The notes under the pieces are model-generated. The model saw only the letters and a program-made list of their open reading frames with translations. It did no database searches and was not told the DNA's origin. From Candidatus Anstonellales archaeon (GTDB lineage: Archaea; Micrarchaeota; Micrarchaeia; Anstonellales; SKW190), in contig JAVZJF010000001.1 in NCBI GenBank assembly GCA_038870935.1, positions 1-25,771 of the forward strand: a stretch of DNA of 25,771 bases, written 5' to 3'. Shown here one piece after another: positions 1 to 8,319 of this stretch. Every line of letters starts with the position of its first letter. Position 1 is the stretch's first letter. A program made the position numbers and the translations under genes.

Positions 1-305
1 TATGCTAATGGATATGTAGAATTAATTGCAATGCTCTGATTATTTATTTTTTCAACGAAAAAGTTTTGATAGTCAATCGTCATAGTTATTCCTTCTCTTA
101 ATTTAACGTTTTGAACAGCCAATTCGGTTTCAGTTGCAATAATGTAAGCATATTTTTGATAAATGTTATTTATGAGTTTTTCGTTTACTAAAGTATCGAC
201 ATTGCTAGATAACATGCTTATAAAAAGGAAATATGCTACTAAATTTATTGCTATTTCAAAAGCTACTTGACCAGTATAAATTTTTTTTATGTTTAACTTA
301 GACAT
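1..305 (-). CDS. Type IV pilin-like protein with class III signal peptide (3'-truncated by window edge)
   Basis: Hand translation from ATG at 305: MSKLNIKKIYTG|QVAFEIAINLVAYFLFISMLSSN..., open to the window edge. G|Q-x-x-x-E followed by a hydrophobic stretch fits the archaeal prepilin-peptidase motif. Starts 5 nt after the flaG-like stop. Not in the ORF track because it is truncated. Confidence 0.6.
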   Translation of the reverse strand, partial: MSKLNIKKIYTGQVAFEIAINLVAYFLFISMLSSNVDTLVNEKLINNIYQKYAYIIATETELAVQNVKLREGITMTIDYQNFFVEKINNQSIAINSTYPLA

Positions 306-310
306 GACCA

Positions 311-772
311 TCAGCAGCTAGAATTCGTATATATCAATTCATCATAAATTCCATTTTCAGTTACTATTTTTATTCTGTTGATTTGATTGGTTTTTGGAAG
401 TGTATAAGGAAATTTAAATGCTACTATTTGTCCTTTTTCCCACACAGTTGAGGAATTTACTTGCACCCAGGTAGAGCCAATTTGTATAGTCACATTTGAT
501 GGAGTTTTTATTTCTCCATTTATTAGTACTGTTGTAGTGTTAGGGTCTGTGATAGGTGAACCGATATTTTTAACATGTATAGTGTCATTTAAATAGCAAG
601 GATCATTGATAATCTTAATTGATGTTGCCACTTGTGAGGAAACGCTTTTAGCTTTATAATTTAAGCTTTTCATAAATGATTGAAAGTTTGAATTTAAAGC
701 AAATACTAACATACTTGCTACAGTTACTGCAGTAATAAAGAATATCATTTGAGTAAATGATTCTCCTGGCAT
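311..772 (-). CDS. flaG: ArlG/FlaG-family protein (archaellin-like N-terminal helix plus beta-sandwich domain)
   Basis: N-terminal hydrophobic helix (FTQMIFFITAVTVASMLVFAL), then IKIINDP, IHVKNIG, TVLING, W-x-x-GQ and C-terminal IKIVTENG, the motif order typical of FlaG/FlaF-like proteins. Confidence 0.7.
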   Translation of the reverse strand: MPGESFTQMIFFITAVTVASMLVFALNSNFQSFMKSLNYKAKSVSSQVATSIKIINDPCYLNDTIHVKNIGSPITDPNTTTVLINGEIKTPSNVTIQIGSTWVQVNSSTVWEKGQIVAFKFPYTLPKTNQINRIKIVTENGIYDELIYTNSSC

Positions 773-1762: not shown

Positions 1763-4513
1763 ATGGACAAAAAGCCTGAAGAAATTGAAAACAAATTAAA
1801 GAGTGCAAATGTCAATATCAGTGAAAATATTCAGAACAAGCAAAAACTAAAAATATTTAGAAGAAAGTTTTTTTTTACTATTAAGAAACGATTTTTCGCA
1901 AAAAGAACATACAAATATACTGATATTAGTCAATTGCCATTAATTCCAAAAATAGTTTATGGTATCAAAGAAAGTCTTGAGCAATCAGGGTTAATAGAAA
2001 CTAAGATAAAACAAGAACCAATTATAGGTAAAGAAAAAGAAGCAAAAAAAACAATAAAACAGAAAGATGAAGAGCTAAGGAAGATAAAAGTTATTTCCCC
2101 AACAAGTTTGGCAAAGAAGCTTTTAGGAGTAATGTTAATTTTTATTGCGTTTATTTCATTTTCAATATATTTAATAATGGTCCAAGCAGGTATGGTCCCT
2201 ATTTCTGAGTCATTATATCTAAAAACAAAGTTTGATGTAGTAGAATTGGATAATGGTCTAATTCCATTTAGAAAAGATAATGTGAATTCTCAGATATTTT
2301 ATTCATTAGTAAATGTTACAGCAATGAACATTACTAACATGAGTTACAGGATTTTAATAAGTAATAAACCTATTTATGCAAATGTCTATGTTTTACATTT
2401 AAATCCGAGTATCTATAGTCAATATCAAGAATCTTATTTGGCGTTCGTAAATCTTCTGAAAAAGAAATTCAGTGATTCAGGTATTTATGTTCATGAGGTA
2501 GAAATGGAAGATTTAGATGATATTGCAGATAATTCAATATTGATAATTCCAGTTAATTACATTCCCGCAGAGTTTATACAAAACGATGCAAAACTTCTAA
2601 GAGTGCTTTTTAATAAAGGAATATTCATTTTTTACATAGGAGATACATTTGATAAAGTTGTAACAAACGAGGGAAAAATCATTCAAATGTCTTATGATTC
2701 ATACGAATTTAGAATAAAATTTGCTAAAAAAGGTTCAAATGAATACAATCAAAGAGTAGGCGAAATTCCTAAAATTTCAGATTCATTAAACATCAAAAGT
2801 AGAGAATACATAATTCTAACGAGTAGTGATAATCTAAAAATAACAGCTGAGGGTTTACAATATATTTACAGAGATGAAAAAGGATCAGGAATCTTATTTT
2901 TTCCAGTAGCATTGTCAAGTGGCTGGGATAATATTGAAGACGCAGTTGATGATGTATTTAATGTATATGCATCTTTTTCTTATTATCCAGTTATAGAAAA
3001 AGGATTTGGAAATCTTACTTCAGGTTCAAACATTTTGTTAATAGAAGATTTAAATCCTAATTTCGATAATTTGTATTATATTGCAATATTTAATGCAAAT
3101 ACAACAATGGGTACGGAATATAGAAAAATTTTTTTCCACAGAGTTGAAGCATTACAAAAAGGTGTTGTATATTTAGAACCGCCAAAGGGTAAGTCAAACT
3201 TAGTTTCAAATTTGATAAGCAGTGAGAAATCTTTAATAACCATTGATTTCGTAGAACTTTCAAACGAATTATCTGATGTTTATTTGCATATTTATAGTGG
3301 AGAGCAAAAGCTATATACTCAGAAATTAAAAGGAGGTCCGTTTTTAGTTAATTTAAAGATAATAGGTAAAGAGATAGACTTACCAGTTCCTCCTGGTGGA
3401 TATGTAATAGTTGCGACAAAAGATGAGCAGGGCAATATAATAATAGGAAAAACATATGTAAAAATAGATGAGCCAGAAATAATTCCTTTGTTTGATTTAA
3501 ACAGTTGGCAGGAAGGCAGATTTAATTTTTCAATAGTTTCAAAGTCATCTAAGCAACCTTATTCTTTTGATAAAGTAGATGTTTATTTTGATAATCGTTT
3601 TGTTGGTAGTTTTAATTCATCCCCATTTATAGCTAGGTTGAATGAACCTGCAGAACAAGGCCAACATACGTTTAAGTTTGTCTTTTCTTCAAACGATTTT
3701 GGGACTAAAATTAGTGATGATAAAAAATATGCACTTTCTTTGACCATGACTTATATTAAACCTTATAATTGGTATGAAGATCCTAATTCGCTTATTGCTT
3801 TGGGTATCTCAGTTTTCTTTGTTATTGTTTCAAGATTTATTAAGCCTCCTGAGGAAAAAATATTTTATTTAACAGTACCTGATTTTCCTCAAAGCAAAAT
3901 AAACAAAGTTAAAGTAAAACCAGATTTTTTCATTGCACTTTTTGACCGTGTCAATAGAAGATATGGTTGGCAGTACATGCCTTTGACAATAGAAGAATTA
4001 AAGAAAGCCATTTATGATTTGGATTTAAAAGGTAAGAAATTAATAGTAAATGATTACAACTTAGAGTTAGTATTGAATGCACTCGTTGAAAGAGGTTTAA
4101 TCAAAAAATATAAATATTATTTCTGTCCAACTGAATGGGAGGAAAAAACAAAATTTGATATTGAGTACTTAACCATAATTCGAATGATAAGAGAAACTGC
4201 ATTATCTTTAGCTATAAAATACCAAATTAATTTAGAACATGATAGACCAAATTTCATATTTACATTTCCAACGAAAGAAATTTTTGTCTTTGCTTACTCT
4301 AAGAACAAGAATTTGTCAATCGTTTTGTTGCCTTATCTTAGCAGAGAAGAAGTAATTCTAGTATTTGGTGATATTGAAGAGAAAAACAATTTCATAGATT
4401 CTATATATTCAGATAATTTAACAGATACACAAATAAAGATTGCATACTTAAACAATAATTTGAAATTAATAACAGTTGATGAGGTCAAAAAGTATTTATT
4501 ATCCTTTAAATAA
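1763..4513 (+). CDS. Large two-TM membrane protein of unknown function (large extracytoplasmic region, cytoplasmic C-terminal winged-helix-like region)
   Basis: 916-aa ORF. Basic N-terminus, TM1 at about aa 119-140 (LLGVMLIFIAFISFSIYLIMV), TM2 at about aa 676-693 (LIALGISVFFVIVSRFI). N-x-S/T sequons between the TMs (NVT, NIT, NMS, NLT, NTT, NFS, NSS). Confidence 0.85.
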   Translation: MDKKPEEIENKLKSANVNISENIQNKQKLKIFRRKFFFTIKKRFFAKRTYKYTDISQLPLIPKIVYGIKESLEQSGLIETKIKQEPIIGKEKEAKKTIKQKDEELRKIKVISPTSLAKKLLGVMLIFIAFISFSIYLIMVQAGMVPISESLYLKTKFDVVELDNGLIPFRKDNVNSQIFYSLVNVTAMNITNMSYRILISNKPIYANVYVLHLNPSIYSQYQESYLAFVNLLKKKFSDSGIYVHEVEMEDLDDIADNSILIIPVNYIPAEFIQNDAKLLRVLFNKGIFIFYIGDTFDKVVTNEGKIIQMSYDSYEFRIKFAKKGSNEYNQRVGEIPKISDSLNIKSREYIILTSSDNLKITAEGLQYIYRDEKGSGILFFPVALSSGWDNIEDAVDDVFNVYASFSYYPVIEKGFGNLTSGSNILLIEDLNPNFDNLYYIAIFNANTTMGTEYRKIFFHRVEALQKGVVYLEPPKGKSNLVSNLISSEKSLITIDFVELSNELSDVYLHIYSGEQKLYTQKLKGGPFLVNLKIIGKEIDLPVPPGGYVIVATKDEQGNIIIGKTYVKIDEPEIIPLFDLNSWQEGRFNFSIVSKSSKQPYSFDKVDVYFDNRFVGSFNSSPFIARLNEPAEQGQHTFKFVFSSNDFGTKISDDKKYALSLTMTYIKPYNWYEDPNSLIALGISVFFVIVSRFIKPPEEKIFYLTVPDFPQSKINKVKVKPDFFIALFDRVNRRYGWQYMPLTIEELKKAIYDLDLKGKKLIVNDYNLELVLNALVERGLIKKYKYYFCPTEWEEKTKFDIEYLTIIRMIRETALSLAIKYQINLEHDRPNFIFTFPTKEIFVFAYSKNKNLSIVLLPYLSREEVILVFGDIEEKNNFIDSIYSDNLTDTQIKIAYLNNNLKLITVDEVKKYLLSFK

Positions 4514-4544
4514 GTACAATTTTAACTACCACAAAAGAAACCTC

Positions 4545-4560
4545 AAAAGAAATTTCTTTT
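4545..4560. terminator. Possible bidirectional terminator between convergent genes
   Basis: Perfect 16-bp palindrome AAAAGAAATTTCTTTT, with a repeat of AAAAGAAA at 4533-4540, in the gap between convergent stops at 4513 and 4559. Confidence 0.3.
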
Positions 4561-5317
4561 ATTTGCTTTCTATGAAACCTTCTTCCATCAATTGTCTTAG
4601 AATGTCTTCTACTCTACCTTCATAAACGTTATATACTTTTGCAAATTCGATTATGTCTATTTCACCTTTATTAGCTATTAGCCATTCTTGGACTTTTGCT
4701 TTTAACACATCATCAGATAAATTTGTGAATTTTTCTAATTTTGCTAATAATTCATTATTTTTTGCTTTTAGATTATAATTGTCTATTGCTAATTGTTCAT
4801 TTGCTTCTTTAAGTGCTTTTGATTCTTTAAGCAAACGTAGATATTCTTGATTTAGATTGTCATACATAGAATGTAAAGCTTCATACTTTAGGTCAACAAA
4901 ATCTTTCAATTGATCAATAACTTTAGTAAGCAATTGATTTATCAATACTAAATTTATTTCATAATCTTCCATCAGCAAGTTTAATATATTCAAGAAAAAA
5001 CTCATAGTTTCTAGAAATTTCTTTTTTGGACTCATTCCTGGGCCATAAGTATAACTAACAGTTATCATGTTCTCTTCAAATTCTATGAGAGTAAATATAG
5101 TGGGTTTTTTGTTAATGTCTTTTGACAATACGTTAAGTAATATAACGTTTTTATCAGTTTTAAGTGTGTAGCAAGTCCTTAATTCATTTAATTTTGCATA
5201 AACTTTATCTAAACTAGTTTTCAAAGTAACAGGAATGCTAAATTTCGATGCACCAAATTTTTGTTTTTGTATTTCCTCATCTTGTTCTTTCTTTTGTAAA
5301 TCTTTTTTTTCTGGCAT
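4559..5317 (-). CDS. Hypothetical protein: alpha/beta N-domain, coiled coil, C-terminal winged helix
   Basis: 252-aa ORF. Heptad region LHSMYDNL...LLAKLEKF, and C-terminal VQEWLIANKGEIDIIEFAKVYNVYEGRVEDILRQLMEEGFI with a winged-helix pattern. Confidence 0.85.
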   Translation of the reverse strand: MPEKKDLQKKEQDEEIQKQKFGASKFSIPVTLKTSLDKVYAKLNELRTCYTLKTDKNVILLNVLSKDINKKPTIFTLIEFEENMITVSYTYGPGMSPKKKFLETMSFFLNILNLLMEDYEINLVLINQLLTKVIDQLKDFVDLKYEALHSMYDNLNQEYLRLLKESKALKEANEQLAIDNYNLKAKNNELLAKLEKFTNLSDDVLKAKVQEWLIANKGEIDIIEFAKVYNVYEGRVEDILRQLMEEGFIESK

Positions 5318-5340
5318 ATCTAATCACAAAAAGTGTTTAA

Positions 5341-5787
5341 TTAATTTGCCTTTTTTTCATTTTTTTGTTCATTAACCTCTTTTACCAATGGCGGCACATA
5401 TGAAAGTATTGCTAAAATTACAAACATTAGAATAAAAATAAACGAAAAAATTATGCTTACAATGTCAGGTAGTCTTAAATAGATTAAAGGCAGTCCTATT
5501 ACTACTATTGCAAGTAAAAGTCCAATTATTAATATCGTATTCATTGTTGATTCAAATCTTTTTCTTTTTTCAGTATATTTATCTACACAGTTGTTGCAGA
5601 CATATAAATTGTTTAAACCTGTTTTTCTTTGAAAAATTTTTGCCTTTATATTCCTCAAAGTGACTAAAATATAATCGTTTTCATTTACTTTTTTAGCATT
5701 TTCGAGGCTTTGTTTAGCTAGTTCAATACCTCATTTTATGCAGATATTTTTTTTATGAGTTTCTTCTTTTTCTTTTTGGTGTTTCAC
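5341..5787 (-). CDS. Zn-finger (CxxC...CxxC) two-TM membrane protein with in-frame UGA at codon 19 (recoded, nonsense mutant or sequencing error)
   Basis: GGTGA SD, 6-nt spacer and GTG at 5787 are in frame with the 105-aa ORF (43 codons upstream of its TTG at 5658). Reads MKHQKEKEETHKKNICIK*GIELAK...YVCNNC...2 TM, with TGA at 5731-5733. Full length 148 aa. Confidence 0.75.
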
Positions 5788-5823
5788 GTTTCTTCACCAA
5801 ATTTTTTTACACAGTAATATAAT

Positions 5824-7383
5824 TTAGCTTTGGTCGAGTTCTAGCTGTGTCATTTCTTCGCTCAAAATATCTAATTTTTTATAATCAACTTTAGTGAATA
5901 TATTAATTATTGTTCCATCATCTAATCCAAAGTCTTTCAATAATGTAGTTATATTATTTCTTGAAATTCCAAATTTATCAAGAGTAACAACAAACACAAC
6001 AATGTCTAAGTGTCTATTACTCTTATCAAATGTAGAATTTATTTCTTCTATTTGTGATTCAGTTAATCCATACATTTTCAATTGTTTCCTTAAATCTTCT
6101 TTCTTTATCGCAATAGTTTGTGCCATTTCCTCACCCAGTACAGATGATAAATCAATAAAGTATTCTTTTCTAGGTTCTTCTCCTTCTATGTGATCTATTA
6201 TAAATGTTTGTGCAAAATCAGTTGAGATAGTCCATGCTAAGTTTACTGCAGCTTGTCCTACTCCTAAATTCCTTATTTCTTCTTTGATATAATCTGAGAA
6301 ATTTAAAGTTGCTTGTAAATAATCTAAATACTTTTCGAATTTAACTTTTAAAATAAAAGTTGTTCCTACATTGCTAAATATTGCTTCACTGATATCAGTA
6401 GGGTTCTGAGAGGCAACTATTAAACCAAATTGATATTTTCTACCTTCTCTTACAATCATAACTGCATCGCTATTCTCCTCTTTTGCGATTTTCCAGGCCT
6501 CATCTAAAACAATGTAGAGTTTTACTCCTTTTTCTTTTGCCCAGCCTTCTTGTCTCATTTTTTCTTTAATGAATTGCAAAATAGTTAATGCAGATAAAGC
6601 TCTAAAAACTTCATCTGGTAATTTTGAGAGATCAATATCAACTAAACCAGAGTTTGTTAGTTTATCAAGGTCTAAAGTGCTTTGTCTAGCAAAATAATCT
6701 TGGCCTTCTTTGGTAAATTGTTTTAACCTATAAATTGCGTTTTCTAATTCCGCAGGGAATTCATAGTCACCTTTTGCTAATTTCTCTTCTAAAATTCTTA
6801 CAACGTCTTTTAAAGTAGGTACCTTTAAAGGTCTTCCTAATTGATCAACTTGCTTTGTTTCACTTAACTTGAAGCCATTATCTAAATAAGCTTTTTCTAT
6901 AGCCAATTCAGTTAATCTTTTTTGCTCAGGATATGCACCAATGTCTGTTAGTAGTTCTAAGCTTCTAATTATTTGCTTTATTCTTACGTTTGGTGTCATT
7001 CCACCTAAGTCAAGTAAATTTATATAATTTCCTGAGCCCAAAGAAACAATTTTACCATTTGTACTAGCAACCCAATCCTTATATTCTCCTGCCCAATCTA
7101 TAATTATTGCATTAGTACCCCAAATTAAACTCGTTCTTACTAAAAATGTTTTCACGAAATAAGATTTTCCTGCTCCAGTAATTCCAACTACACAAATATG
7201 GGGATTAGTTAAATACTTGTGATGCCAATGAAAGGGTATGTTAAATATTCTTGTTCTTCCAATGTAGATAGAGTCTGCAATATCTTGCATTAGATATTCT
7301 GCAGGCGGTTCTGGTGGCATTACTAAAATATTTCTTAAGGAAATTGTTTGGTTGTCAACGTCGTTTATTTTTAGCCAGCCCAT
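5824..7383 (-). CDS. VirB4/HerA-FtsK superfamily P-loop ATPase (DUF87-type) with C-terminal helical extension
   Basis: NPHICVVGITGAGKS (Walker A), YIVLDEAW (Walker B), REGRKYQFGLIVASQ (arginine-finger and SQ motifs). ORF track starts at GTG 7392; ATG 7383 is the probable start. Confidence 0.9.
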   Translation of the reverse strand: MGWLKINDVDNQTISLRNILVMPPEPPAEYLMQDIADSIYIGRTRIFNIPFHWHHKYLTNPHICVVGITGAGKSYFVKTFLVRTSLIWGTNAIIIDWAGEYKDWVASTNGKIVSLGSGNYINLLDLGGMTPNVRIKQIIRSLELLTDIGAYPEQKRLTELAIEKAYLDNGFKLSETKQVDQLGRPLKVPTLKDVVRILEEKLAKGDYEFPAELENAIYRLKQFTKEGQDYFARQSTLDLDKLTNSGLVDIDLSKLPDEVFRALSALTILQFIKEKMRQEGWAKEKGVKLYIVLDEAWKIAKEENSDAVMIVREGRKYQFGLIVASQNPTDISEAIFSNVGTTFILKVKFEKYLDYLQATLNFSDYIKEEIRNLGVGQAAVNLAWTISTDFAQTFIIDHIEGEEPRKEYFIDLSSVLGEEMAQTIAIKKEDLRKQLKMYGLTESQIEEINSTFDKSNRHLDIVVFVVTLDKFGISRNNITTLLKDFGLDDGTIINIFTKVDYKKLDILSEEMTQLELDQS

Positions 7384-7411
7384 AAAAATCACACGAGTTA
7401 GTGACTACTTT

Positions 7412-8242
7412 TTAGTTAAGTTGCTGATCAAGCTCAGCATATTCCCTTGGAATCATGAATTCCCAATCAAAGCATCTCAACATATCTTCTGCAGTTAATA
7501 TTCGTGCATCAACAGCTAAAGCGTTTTGTATCCATGATTTAATCTCTTCAGCCTGTCTTCTTGCAGCAGCAACTGCTTGCTCTCTGCTTACTCCTATAGC
7601 AGTTGTTTGAACATATGCGACTATTGCCATAGGTTTATTACCTGCGGTTAATCTTTCTAGTTCTGCTTGCCATAAAGCTAATTCGTTCTCTAATTTTTCT
7701 ATAGTTATAGGGTCTGGGTCTGATTTCTCTCGTTCTCTATTTAATTTATATTGCACAGTATAAATCTTTTCTTTTATTGTTTCTCTCTTTTTGCTAATAT
7801 CAATCACATAAAGCAAATATGAGATTTTTGTTACATATCTCAAACCTGAAATCGCTCTCTCAAAGGATTTAATATAAGTAAGCATTTCTGTTTCAGGTCT
7901 TTCTATTGATGATTTAAATACATTTAATCCTATATAAGCACTTGCGTAATAGAGATTTCCGTCAGTTGCAATAATAGTGTCTTGAGTAGGCGGAATTTCA
8001 AAATGTACAGGTAAAGGAGTAGTTATTTTCATTTTTTTTGTTATTTGAGGAATTACTATATAGCCGTATTTAAATAATATCAATGAAAGAATTGCTGAAA
8101 TTGCTGAAATTATTGTTGCGAGTAATTTTAAAAAAGTTAAATAATCATTAGAAGTTGGAATTGCAAATGCTATCAATAAACTTATTAACGATAATGCAAT
8201 TGCTATGTACGATACCTTATTTTGACTTAGAACGCTTGGCAT
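7412..8242 (-). CDS. Membrane-anchored protein (2 N-terminal TM plus coiled-coil-containing cytoplasmic domain), probable partner of the adjacent ATPase
   Basis: 276-aa ORF with AGGTGG SD and two hydrophobic helices in aa 12-60. About 20 nt gap to the ATPase gene, so likely co-transcribed. Confidence 0.8.
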   Translation of the reverse strand: MPSVLSQNKVSYIAIALSLISLLIAFAIPTSNDYLTFLKLLATIISAISAILSLILFKYGYIVIPQITKKMKITTPLPVHFEIPPTQDTIIATDGNLYYASAYIGLNVFKSSIERPETEMLTYIKSFERAISGLRYVTKISYLLYVIDISKKRETIKEKIYTVQYKLNREREKSDPDPITIEKLENELALWQAELERLTAGNKPMAIVAYVQTTAIGVSREQAVAAARRQAEEIKSWIQNALAVDARILTAEDMLRCFDWEFMIPREYAELDQQLN

Positions 8243-8319
8243 CTAAAATCGACCACCTATAATTGATAATCATATTAAATCCTATAAATATATAATTCCA
8301 ATCCCTTACAAGTTAATTC

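Follow-up and report, generated by a model that had tools for sequence, protein, structure and literature searches.

The stretch of DNA analysed here (the window) is the entire 25.8-kb contig JAVZJF010000001.1 of a Candidatus Anstonellales archaeon (GCA_038870935.1; genome of 1.14 Mb, 76% complete) from the phylum Micrarchaeota, which is named "Microcaldota" in the ESM Atlas. The region at positions 1763-8242 probably represents the Micrarchaeota-wide five-gene core of a chromosomal machine that was derived from conjugation or a type IV secretion system (T4SS) and is broadly akin to the Ced and Ted systems of DNA transfer (PMC9905601). The best reading is that of a domesticated machine for transfer or for a conjugative pilus, built around a VirB4/CedB-type ATPase, a membrane partner of this ATPase and three accessory proteins, with VirB2-like pilins and multi-pass membrane proteins encoded elsewhere in the genome. 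An earlier interpretation made from the letters and translations alone (the sequence-only reading) had proposed a domesticated, Ced-analogous or secretion/host-contact machine with a VirB4-like ATPase and novel membrane parts, and the results given below support this proposal. No description of the operon was found in the searchable literature; general speculation on pili and conjugative islands has been published for the Micrarchaeote Mia14 (PMC5498576).

A VirB4/CedB-type motor split into two genes

The 522-aa ATPase was assigned by Pfam to DUF87 (E 5e-14) and AAA_10 (4e-13), and by NCBIfam to CedB (8.5e-22, 77.5 bits), VirB4 CD1110 (1.9e-21, 76 bits) and VirB4_plasma (7e-21), every NCBIfam match lying far under its orthologue cut-off. 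HerA models reached 45-52 bits, i.e. less than CedB and VirB4. Among profiles from the Protein Data Bank (PDB), the C-terminal domain of VirB4 (4ag5) was matched at E 4.5e-7. Since the matches to VirB4/TraC profiles begin at position ~423-428, the protein corresponds to the C-terminal half of VirB4 only. The match to the CedB equivalog NF041017 (cut-off 700 bits) is confined to profile positions 248-571, and by its sequence the ATPase is a relative of CedB, not a CedB orthologue. The Walker A motif GITGAGKS and the motif REGRK were present in all 13 core-family sequences checked, the Walker B motif VLDEAW in 12 of them. The C-terminal tail (~5827-6135) is homologous to an extra, stand-alone 98-aa open reading frame (ORF) of sister families.

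The N-terminal half is represented by the 276-aa protein encoded directly upstream. Its AlphaFold 2 (AF2) model, calculated from a 20-sequence alignment (pLDDT 85), consists of a hairpin of two transmembrane (TM) helices followed by an alpha/beta domain. Residues 79-276 of the model superpose on residues 221-383 of R388 TrwK/VirB4, the segment immediately preceding the catalytic domain (VIA Z 11.0, root-mean-square deviation 2.7 Å over 151 aa); R388 VirB4 was the top row of the VIA comparison, 2.4 Z units over the first match other than R388 VirB4, and the best Foldseek matches, 7o42_A and 8rtd_V, are R388 VirB4 chains as well. In the model, the TM hairpin is placed in a VirB3-like position, and the remainder has the fold of the VirB4 N-terminal domain. 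At sequence level, one member of the 276-aa family matched the VirB4_plasma model (E 2e-4), and hhalign aligned the family with the N-terminus of a fused CedB-like protein (E 3e-5, probability 72%); a PDB profile search with the family gave no match. Judged from profiles and model together, the 276-aa and 522-aa proteins are a VirB4/CedB-type motor split into two genes. Of the components of a T4SS, a VirB4-family ATPase is therefore present as N-terminal fold plus RecA-like catalytic half, distributed over two genes.

A divergent second pair was noticed on another contig of the genome (C46, 414-1770), adjoining housekeeping genes near the contig start: two ORFs, of 192 and 249 aa, resemble the final part of the ATPase including its tail (E 5e-11) and the coiled-coil/winged-helix family described below (E 1e-8), respectively.

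Operon structure and conservation

Four minus-strand genes, which the sequence-only reading had described as a quartet of two-TM partner, ATPase, Zn-finger two-TM protein and coiled-coil/winged-helix protein amid housekeeping genes, were confirmed as ORFs where they had been placed (7412-8242, 5824-7392, 5341-5658 and 4559-5317), with intergenic gaps of 19, 36-165 and 23 nt. The quartet converges on a plus-strand gene for a 916-aa protein at 1763-4513.

The ATPase was detected in 177 of the 201 sampled genomes of the phylum (~88%) with 54-67% identity, and in 134 of the 152 high-quality genomes. Gene neighbourhoods (14-18 kb around the ATPase) were compared for 20 genomes from many families. 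The genes for the ATPase and the 276-aa, 252-aa and 916-aa proteins were detected in 19-20 of the 20 loci, in one order and on one strand, with flanks that vary from locus to locus. The 276-aa gene was found by BLAST in 19 of the 20 relatives, always directly upstream of the ATPase; the zinc-ribbon gene gave a BLAST match in 13 loci, and an ORF of the matching type occupies its slot in all 20. The 916-aa orthologue lies directly downstream of the 252-aa gene in 20/20 relatives, and since it is colinear there on the operon strand, the 916-aa gene is an operon member rather than a chance neighbour. The sequence-only reading was correct in describing a converging surface protein with two TM helices; it had not recognised that the gene is the fifth of the operon, and the VirB2-like pilins were beyond its view. 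The inversion is shared by the window and its nearest relative, GCA_026414265.1 (L053:12878-15619), and it is not an assembly error, because this independent assembly (ATPase 92% identical) has it too. In this lineage the 916-aa gene comes after nadK, behind a hairpin (ttgcttttaatattaaaagcaa, 1719-1740).

Presence and absence agree across the phylum, so that the co-conservation on which the sequence-only reading depended was borne out in both directions. The partner proteins, the pilins and the multi-pass proteins were all present in 10/10 ATPase-positive control genomes, while among 20 ATPase-negative genomes the 252-aa family was found in none and the 276-aa family in one (G145), which probably has an assembly gap, because pilin and multi-pass genes are present there as well; the ATPase-negative genomes are kin, so this pattern of co-absence may reflect few evolutionary events.

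VirB2-like pilins and multi-pass membrane proteins

In three relatives, one or two VirB2-like genes are located directly upstream of the operon. The encoded proteins have a signal peptide and two hydrophobic helices, and they match the models TrbC/VirB2 (PF04956), T4SS_pilin (PF18895) and TrwL (NF033899) at 1e-5 to 1e-3. The genome studied here has five such genes outside the window, on contigs C8 (two), C39, C44 and C5; several match PF04956 (1e-5 to 3e-4), PF18895 and NF033899 (2e-5), and those on C44 and C5 match the in-house family profile only. A VirB2-type pilin, another T4SS component looked for, is accordingly represented by sub-cut-off model matches. Pilin genes occurred in 1-7 copies in 10/10 ATPase-positive controls, and none were found in 19 truly ATPase-negative genomes.

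The same distribution was obtained for a family of multi-pass membrane proteins with ~6-8 hydrophobic segments each (6-18 copies in 10/10 ATPase-positive controls; none found in the 19 truly negative genomes). In this genome its members are encoded outside the window, six of them in tandem on C6 and others on C144 and C155. The operon of sister families begins with five tandem multi-pass paralogues, followed by a second copy of the 276-aa gene, and includes the extra 98-aa copy of the ATPase tail. Neither Pfam nor NCBIfam gave a match to the multi-pass family. Comparison with thaumarchaeal CedA-like proteins by hhalign gave a probability of 24% over one motif only, and an ESM Atlas search returned Micrarchaeota clusters; the CedA1-domain cluster listed at rank 14 (0.89) is no more than a lead.

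Pilin and multi-pass copies lie mostly in tandem arrays (relatives G001, G004, G012, G039 and others, with ~1-Mb genomes). Their expansion is reminiscent of Rickettsiales, where VirB6 and VirB2 genes have proliferated. On C6 (L045:859-13616) the six tandem multi-pass paralogues, on the minus strand, diverge from a gene for a 696-aa protein combining an SLT lytic transglycosylase and an M23 peptidase, beside which a 167-aa protein of unknown kind and a true HerA are encoded. A peptidoglycan hydrolase is odd for an archaeon. It was considered as a VirB1 equivalent and rejected as a conserved part, being found in 0/30 relatives; because it was not found in these related genomes, it may be a recent acquisition.

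Accessory proteins

For the zinc-ribbon, 252-aa and 916-aa families, no family-level match was obtained in Pfam or NCBIfam. The full zinc-ribbon gene starts with GTG at 5787, and the called 105-aa ORF (TM helices at residues 41-59 and 66-84) covers the second ribbon half only. An in-frame TGA (5731-5733) interrupts the gene exactly where the first CxxC should have its second Cys (CIK*G, compared with CIVCG in the nearest relative, whose gene is uninterrupted and encodes 160 aa). Sequencing error, a private nonsense mutation (with restart at TTG 5658) and recoding are all conceivable explanations for this TGA. The Zn-finger two-TM gene of the sequence-only reading is real, and what had been called was part of it.

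The winged helix of the 252-aa protein comprises its C-terminal ~45 aa (window 4559-4700). The family profile matched the winged helix of the ESCRT-III protein CdvB (PDB 2xvc, E 3e-4, positions 202-244), which is a weak likeness; the PDB profile search gave coiled coils and this winged helix only, the Pfam scan weak MarR/TrmB matches, and the ESM Atlas search Microcaldota clusters only. The CdvB winged helix binds a CdvA peptide, and for this reason the winged helix of the 252-aa protein may bind protein rather than DNA.

The 916-aa protein has TM helices at ~113-142 and 674-693; Pfam and NCBIfam scans of it found nothing. Its AF2 model (pLDDT 78) shows, in this order, an N-terminus that is disordered and cytoplasmic, the first TM helix, an ectodomain, the second TM helix and ~200 aa that form a well-conserved cytoplasmic domain. 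The ectodomain is modelled as a DUF4350/VWA-like alpha/beta domain plus about four immunoglobulin (Ig)-like beta-sandwiches, in line with the Foldseek matches (macroglobulin, FN3 and adhesin beta-sandwiches) and with AlphaFold Database matches to DUF4350/VWA-like proteins over residues ~121-464.

Phylogeny of the ATPase and remote relatives

The ATPase tree was calculated from 59 sequences, a set without Sulfolobales CedB or Thermoproteales TedB. The core ATPases of Micrarchaeota group together with 100% support, in an internal order that follows taxonomy, and this clade is nested in a wider one (98) that also holds relatives with 38-51% identity. An adjacent clade contains short paralogues with DUF87 (the single one looked up belongs to Micrarchaeota), and bacterial VirB4/TraC as well as the genome's own HerA are placed on long branches. 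Fused CedB-like proteins of Thaumarchaeota form a separate clade (98 SH-aLRT). In these relatives of 860-914 aa, the ATPase is located at ~285-633, the CedB model is matched end to end (119-144 bits), the N-terminus aligns with the 276-aa family, and the genes adjoin CedA1-family genes. A scan of genome contigs yielded two thaumarchaeal loci only. The gene order at L044, L054 and L055 is a small two-TM gene, a ~290-aa multi-pass gene, a 62-65-aa two-TM gene (L044 and L055) and the fused CedB-like ATPase, which has a conserved C-terminal extension of ~250 aa. Among plasmid records, the nearest relatives of the ATPase are conjugative VirB4/TraC proteins with 21-29% identity.

The short DUF87 paralogue that was looked up (P0198; paralogues of this clade have ~370 aa) is encoded in a Micrarchaeota metagenome-assembled genome (GCA_028866715.1, L058:378-9113), where it ends a different operon with two giant Laminin_G_3 proteins; this may be a second, smaller ATPase-driven surface system.

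Comparison with known systems

With the Ced system found in Sulfolobales and Desulfurococcales (CedA, CedA1, CedA2, CedB), the machine shares a chromosomal, relaxase-less and conjugation-derived character, a VirB4-family ATPase with a membrane-associated N-terminal half, small two-helix pilins of the VirB2 kind and multi-pass membrane partners. It differs in that its motor is split into two genes and scores 77.5 bits against the 700 required for CedB, that its pilins match TrbC/VirB2/TrwL models and are not recognisable as CedA1, that the multi-pass family is present in 6-18 copies, and that it is spread over most of a DPANN phylum, not Thermoproteota. The three conserved accessory proteins are without counterpart in Ced or Ted. 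A defining trait of Ced is the import of DNA from cell to cell in response to DNA damage. The nearest relatives that are recognisably tied to Ced parts are the Ced-like clusters of Thaumarchaeota/Nitrosopumilales (L044, L054, L055), with 29-39% identity in the ATPase domain. The 276-aa partner can be aligned with their N-terminal 290 aa, and small two-TM and multi-pass genes lie upstream; on the other hand, their motor is fused and extends further at the C-terminus, none of the accessory genes of Micrarchaeota is present, and they belong to a separate clade.

Conjugative T4SSs of Gram-positive bacteria (mating-pair formation (MPF) types FATA/FA; e.g. Enterococcus VirB6/CD1112-PrgI-VirB4/CD1110-hydrolase, L056) share with the machine a VirB4 of the same family (CD1110, see above), a VirB3-like two-TM element before VirB4, a monoderm envelope and the lack of a VirB7/9/10 core. 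In contrast to them, no VirD4, relaxase or VirB8 was found here, the locus is not on a mobile element, and the VirB1-like hydrolase on C6 is not conserved. Chromosomal T4SSs of Patescibacteria (the candidate phyla radiation, CPR) have been described as relaxase-less, vertically inherited systems with VirB4 and VirB2-like pilins in ultra-small symbionts with reduced genomes, and co-option for host interaction was proposed (PMC12102498). The system studied here is alike in being a relaxase-less, vertically inherited VirB4/VirB2-like system of ultra-small symbionts, but the patescibacterial one is a bacterial lineage nested in MPF-FATA with other accessory genes, and the homology shown here covers VirB4 and VirB2. 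Giant "SPEARE" proteins of nanohaloarchaea, proposed to act on the host, carry VirB4/TraG-like ATPase domains (PMC10266531). Likened by description only, they are a further DPANN case of a VirB4-like ATPase linked with a large Ig-rich surface protein that is anchored in the membrane; in them the giant protein includes the ATPase, whereas here separate genes are used.

Genomic setting

The operon is flanked in the window by housekeeping genes (NAD kinase, GlmS, GMP synthase, GHMP kinase, DUF2070, S-layer protein, NDK, S28e, L7Ae and SAICAR synthase), and the G+C content across the region (0.26-0.34) is like that of the remaining contig. The divergent intergenic region between operon and glmS contains, on the operon strand, a TATA-like TTTATA and the ribosome-binding site GGTGG, and would be the operon promoter. 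The features are collected in Table 1.

Table 1 Features of the operon and its putative promoter region in the window
Feature	Coordinates	Strand	Evidence
276-aa membrane anchor of the split motor, 2 TM	7412..8242	-	AF2 model, VIA, Foldseek, profiles, neighbourhood
522-aa VirB4/CedB-type ATPase, catalytic half, with ~100-aa C-terminal helical tail	5824..7392	-	Pfam, NCBIfam and PDB profiles
Small membrane protein, cytoplasmic CxxC...CxxC zinc ribbon and two-TM hairpin	5341..5787	-	Alignment with 9 orthologues
252-aa cytoplasmic protein: N-terminal alpha/beta, ~60-residue coiled coil, C-terminal winged helix	4559..5317	-	Alignment of 21 orthologues
916-aa bitopic envelope protein, fifth operon gene, inverted in this lineage	1763..4513	+	AF2 model, Foldseek, neighbourhood
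Divergent intergenic region between operon and glmS, 77 bp	8243..8319	.	Direct sequence reading

The start of the window (3-772, minus strand) is occupied by a gene resembling ArlG/ArlF (NCBIfam ArlG, 1.4e-18) and, behind it, a small ORF of pilin-like character whose product has a single hydrophobic segment; archaellum core genes are not located nearby. The contig of the relative shares this arrangement and carries Laminin_G_3 genes in addition.

Weighing of alternative explanations

An ATPase that pumps DNA in the manner of HerA/FtsK, for repair, chromosome segregation or cell division and unrelated to secretion, was taken into account. The Pfam domain bears the name "HerA central domain", weak HerA and FtsK matches were obtained, and the 252-aa protein has a winged helix like that of CdvB, a protein of cell division. 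Identity with HerA/NurA was nevertheless rejected: by profile scan the 522-aa ATPase has no HAS barrel, the operon contains no NurA, the HerA scores are weaker than those of CedB and VirB4, the partner protein is modelled with the VirB4 N-terminal fold, and the genome has a separate, true HerA on C6, which combines a HAS barrel with DUF87 and reaches 159 bits with HerA_Thermprot. The system moreover co-varies with VirB2-like pilins, and a pump of this type is very unlikely, as the sequence-only reading required. Hardly credible is an integrated conjugative element or plasmid remnant that serves its own transfer. VirB4-like ATPases and VirB2-like pilins are hallmarks of such elements, and 111 of the 196 plasmid records with an ATPase match are conjugative; yet the operon is present as one orthologous copy per genome, is conserved phylum-wide with a tree that follows taxonomy, and does not deviate in G+C. 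Housekeeping genes flank it here and also in the 50.7-kb contig of the nearest relative, there in the 10 kb fetched on either side, which bears out the earlier view that the locus is not part of a conjugative element. No integrase was detected among the window ORFs scanned, and VirD4 (PF02534) and relaxase (PF03432), the absence of which had been noted from the window, were not found in the 76%-complete genome, control genomes being positive. On flanks, distribution, tree and G+C, a mobile element was rejected; the operon is inherited vertically, and a machine that spreads a mobile element is unlikely. Because relaxase and VirD4 are lacking, contact-dependent transfer in the service of the cell itself is the most likely role of the machine; by analogy, DNA might be imported, as by Ced, or material exchanged with a host, as has been suggested for the patescibacterial T4SS.

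Two narrower readings specify this transfer. A Ced-type importer that takes up the DNA of neighbours for recombination repair or gene acquisition is possible but rather doubtful. CedB is the best NCBIfam match, though narrowly and level with the Gram-positive VirB4 (77.5 against 76 bits, far from the CedB cut-off); the nearest fused relatives are found in clusters of CedA1, CedA-like and CedB-like genes, while in Micrarchaeota no CedA orthologue was established; and the winged helix, the zinc ribbon and the helical ATPase tail resemble nucleic-acid binders, although winged helices, as in CdvB, can bind peptides. The lack of a detected relaxase or VirD4 is as in Ced. A pilus or conduit for host contact, by which the symbiont would attach to its host and pass proteins, lipids or metabolites, an archaeal equivalent of the chromosomal, relaxase-less T4SS known from Patescibacteria, can be put forward tentatively. 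It is suggested by a phylum-wide core gene set in symbiont genomes of 0.7-1.6 Mb, by a large, adhesin-like surface protein, by the expansion of pilins (1-7) and multi-pass proteins (6-18) per genome, as expected of host-facing parts, by the patescibacterial precedent (PMC12102498) and by pili-like links between ARMAN cells and their hosts, as reported in literature cited in PMC5498576. Against it stand the lack of effector candidates and the fact that some families of the class, presumably symbionts too, are without the whole system.

Several points also weigh against the broader interpretation of the region as a conjugation-derived machine akin to Ced/Ted. The backbone and deep branches of the ATPase tree are unresolved, bona fide CedB and TedB not being included; all pilin matches lie below curated cut-offs; and, judged by sequence, an identity of the multi-pass family with VirB6 or CedA is not established. 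The roles of the three accessory proteins are guesses, because no relatives were found outside the phylum, and the absence of VirD4 and relaxase is weak evidence in a genome of this completeness. Purine synthesis is encoded (SAICAR synthase and GMP synthase; PurE by sequence reading only), so that DNA import for the scavenging of nucleotides is not obviously needed.

Proposed mechanism and significance

In the domesticated transfer machine proposed here, the two halves of the motor would assemble into a membrane hexamer and, as bacterial VirB4 does, extract pilin subunits from the membrane. The extracted pilins, together with the multi-pass proteins as putative analogues of VirB6/CedA, would build a conjugative-type pilus or channel. 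The 916-aa protein may act as an envelope-spanning scaffold or adhesin with its cytoplasmic tail coupled to the motor, and the winged-helix, zinc-ribbon and ATPase-tail domains might recruit the substrate. More speculatively, and with little confidence, the machine can be imagined as the long-sought host-interaction apparatus of Micrarchaeota, i.e. a pilus or conduit of the conjugative type that, by means of its split VirB4 motor, the expanded pilins and channel proteins and the 916-aa envelope scaffold, docks on another cell and draws in DNA, lipids or proteins. A counterpart might then be seen in the envelope structures that cryo-tomography has revealed in ARM-1, a cultivated Micrarchaeote (PMC11329633).

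By what means DPANN archaea attach to their hosts and take up host material is an open question, and no dedicated transfer machine has been defined for Micrarchaeota so far. The locus is a concrete and testable candidate, being vertically inherited, relaxase-less, conjugation-derived and present in ~88% of the sampled genomes of the phylum, with a VirB4 motor that is permanently split and three protein families without known relatives; the cultivated Micrarchaeota ARM-1 and Mia14 are possible test systems. If the interpretation is true, the Ced/Ted story would be widened, in that conjugation machinery was domesticated more than once in Archaea, in parallel to the independent domestication in the ultra-small bacterial symbionts of the Patescibacteria. 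Should the machine indeed be a host-interaction apparatus, it would be the counterpart in Archaea of the T4SS on which the epibiotic growth of Patescibacteria depends.

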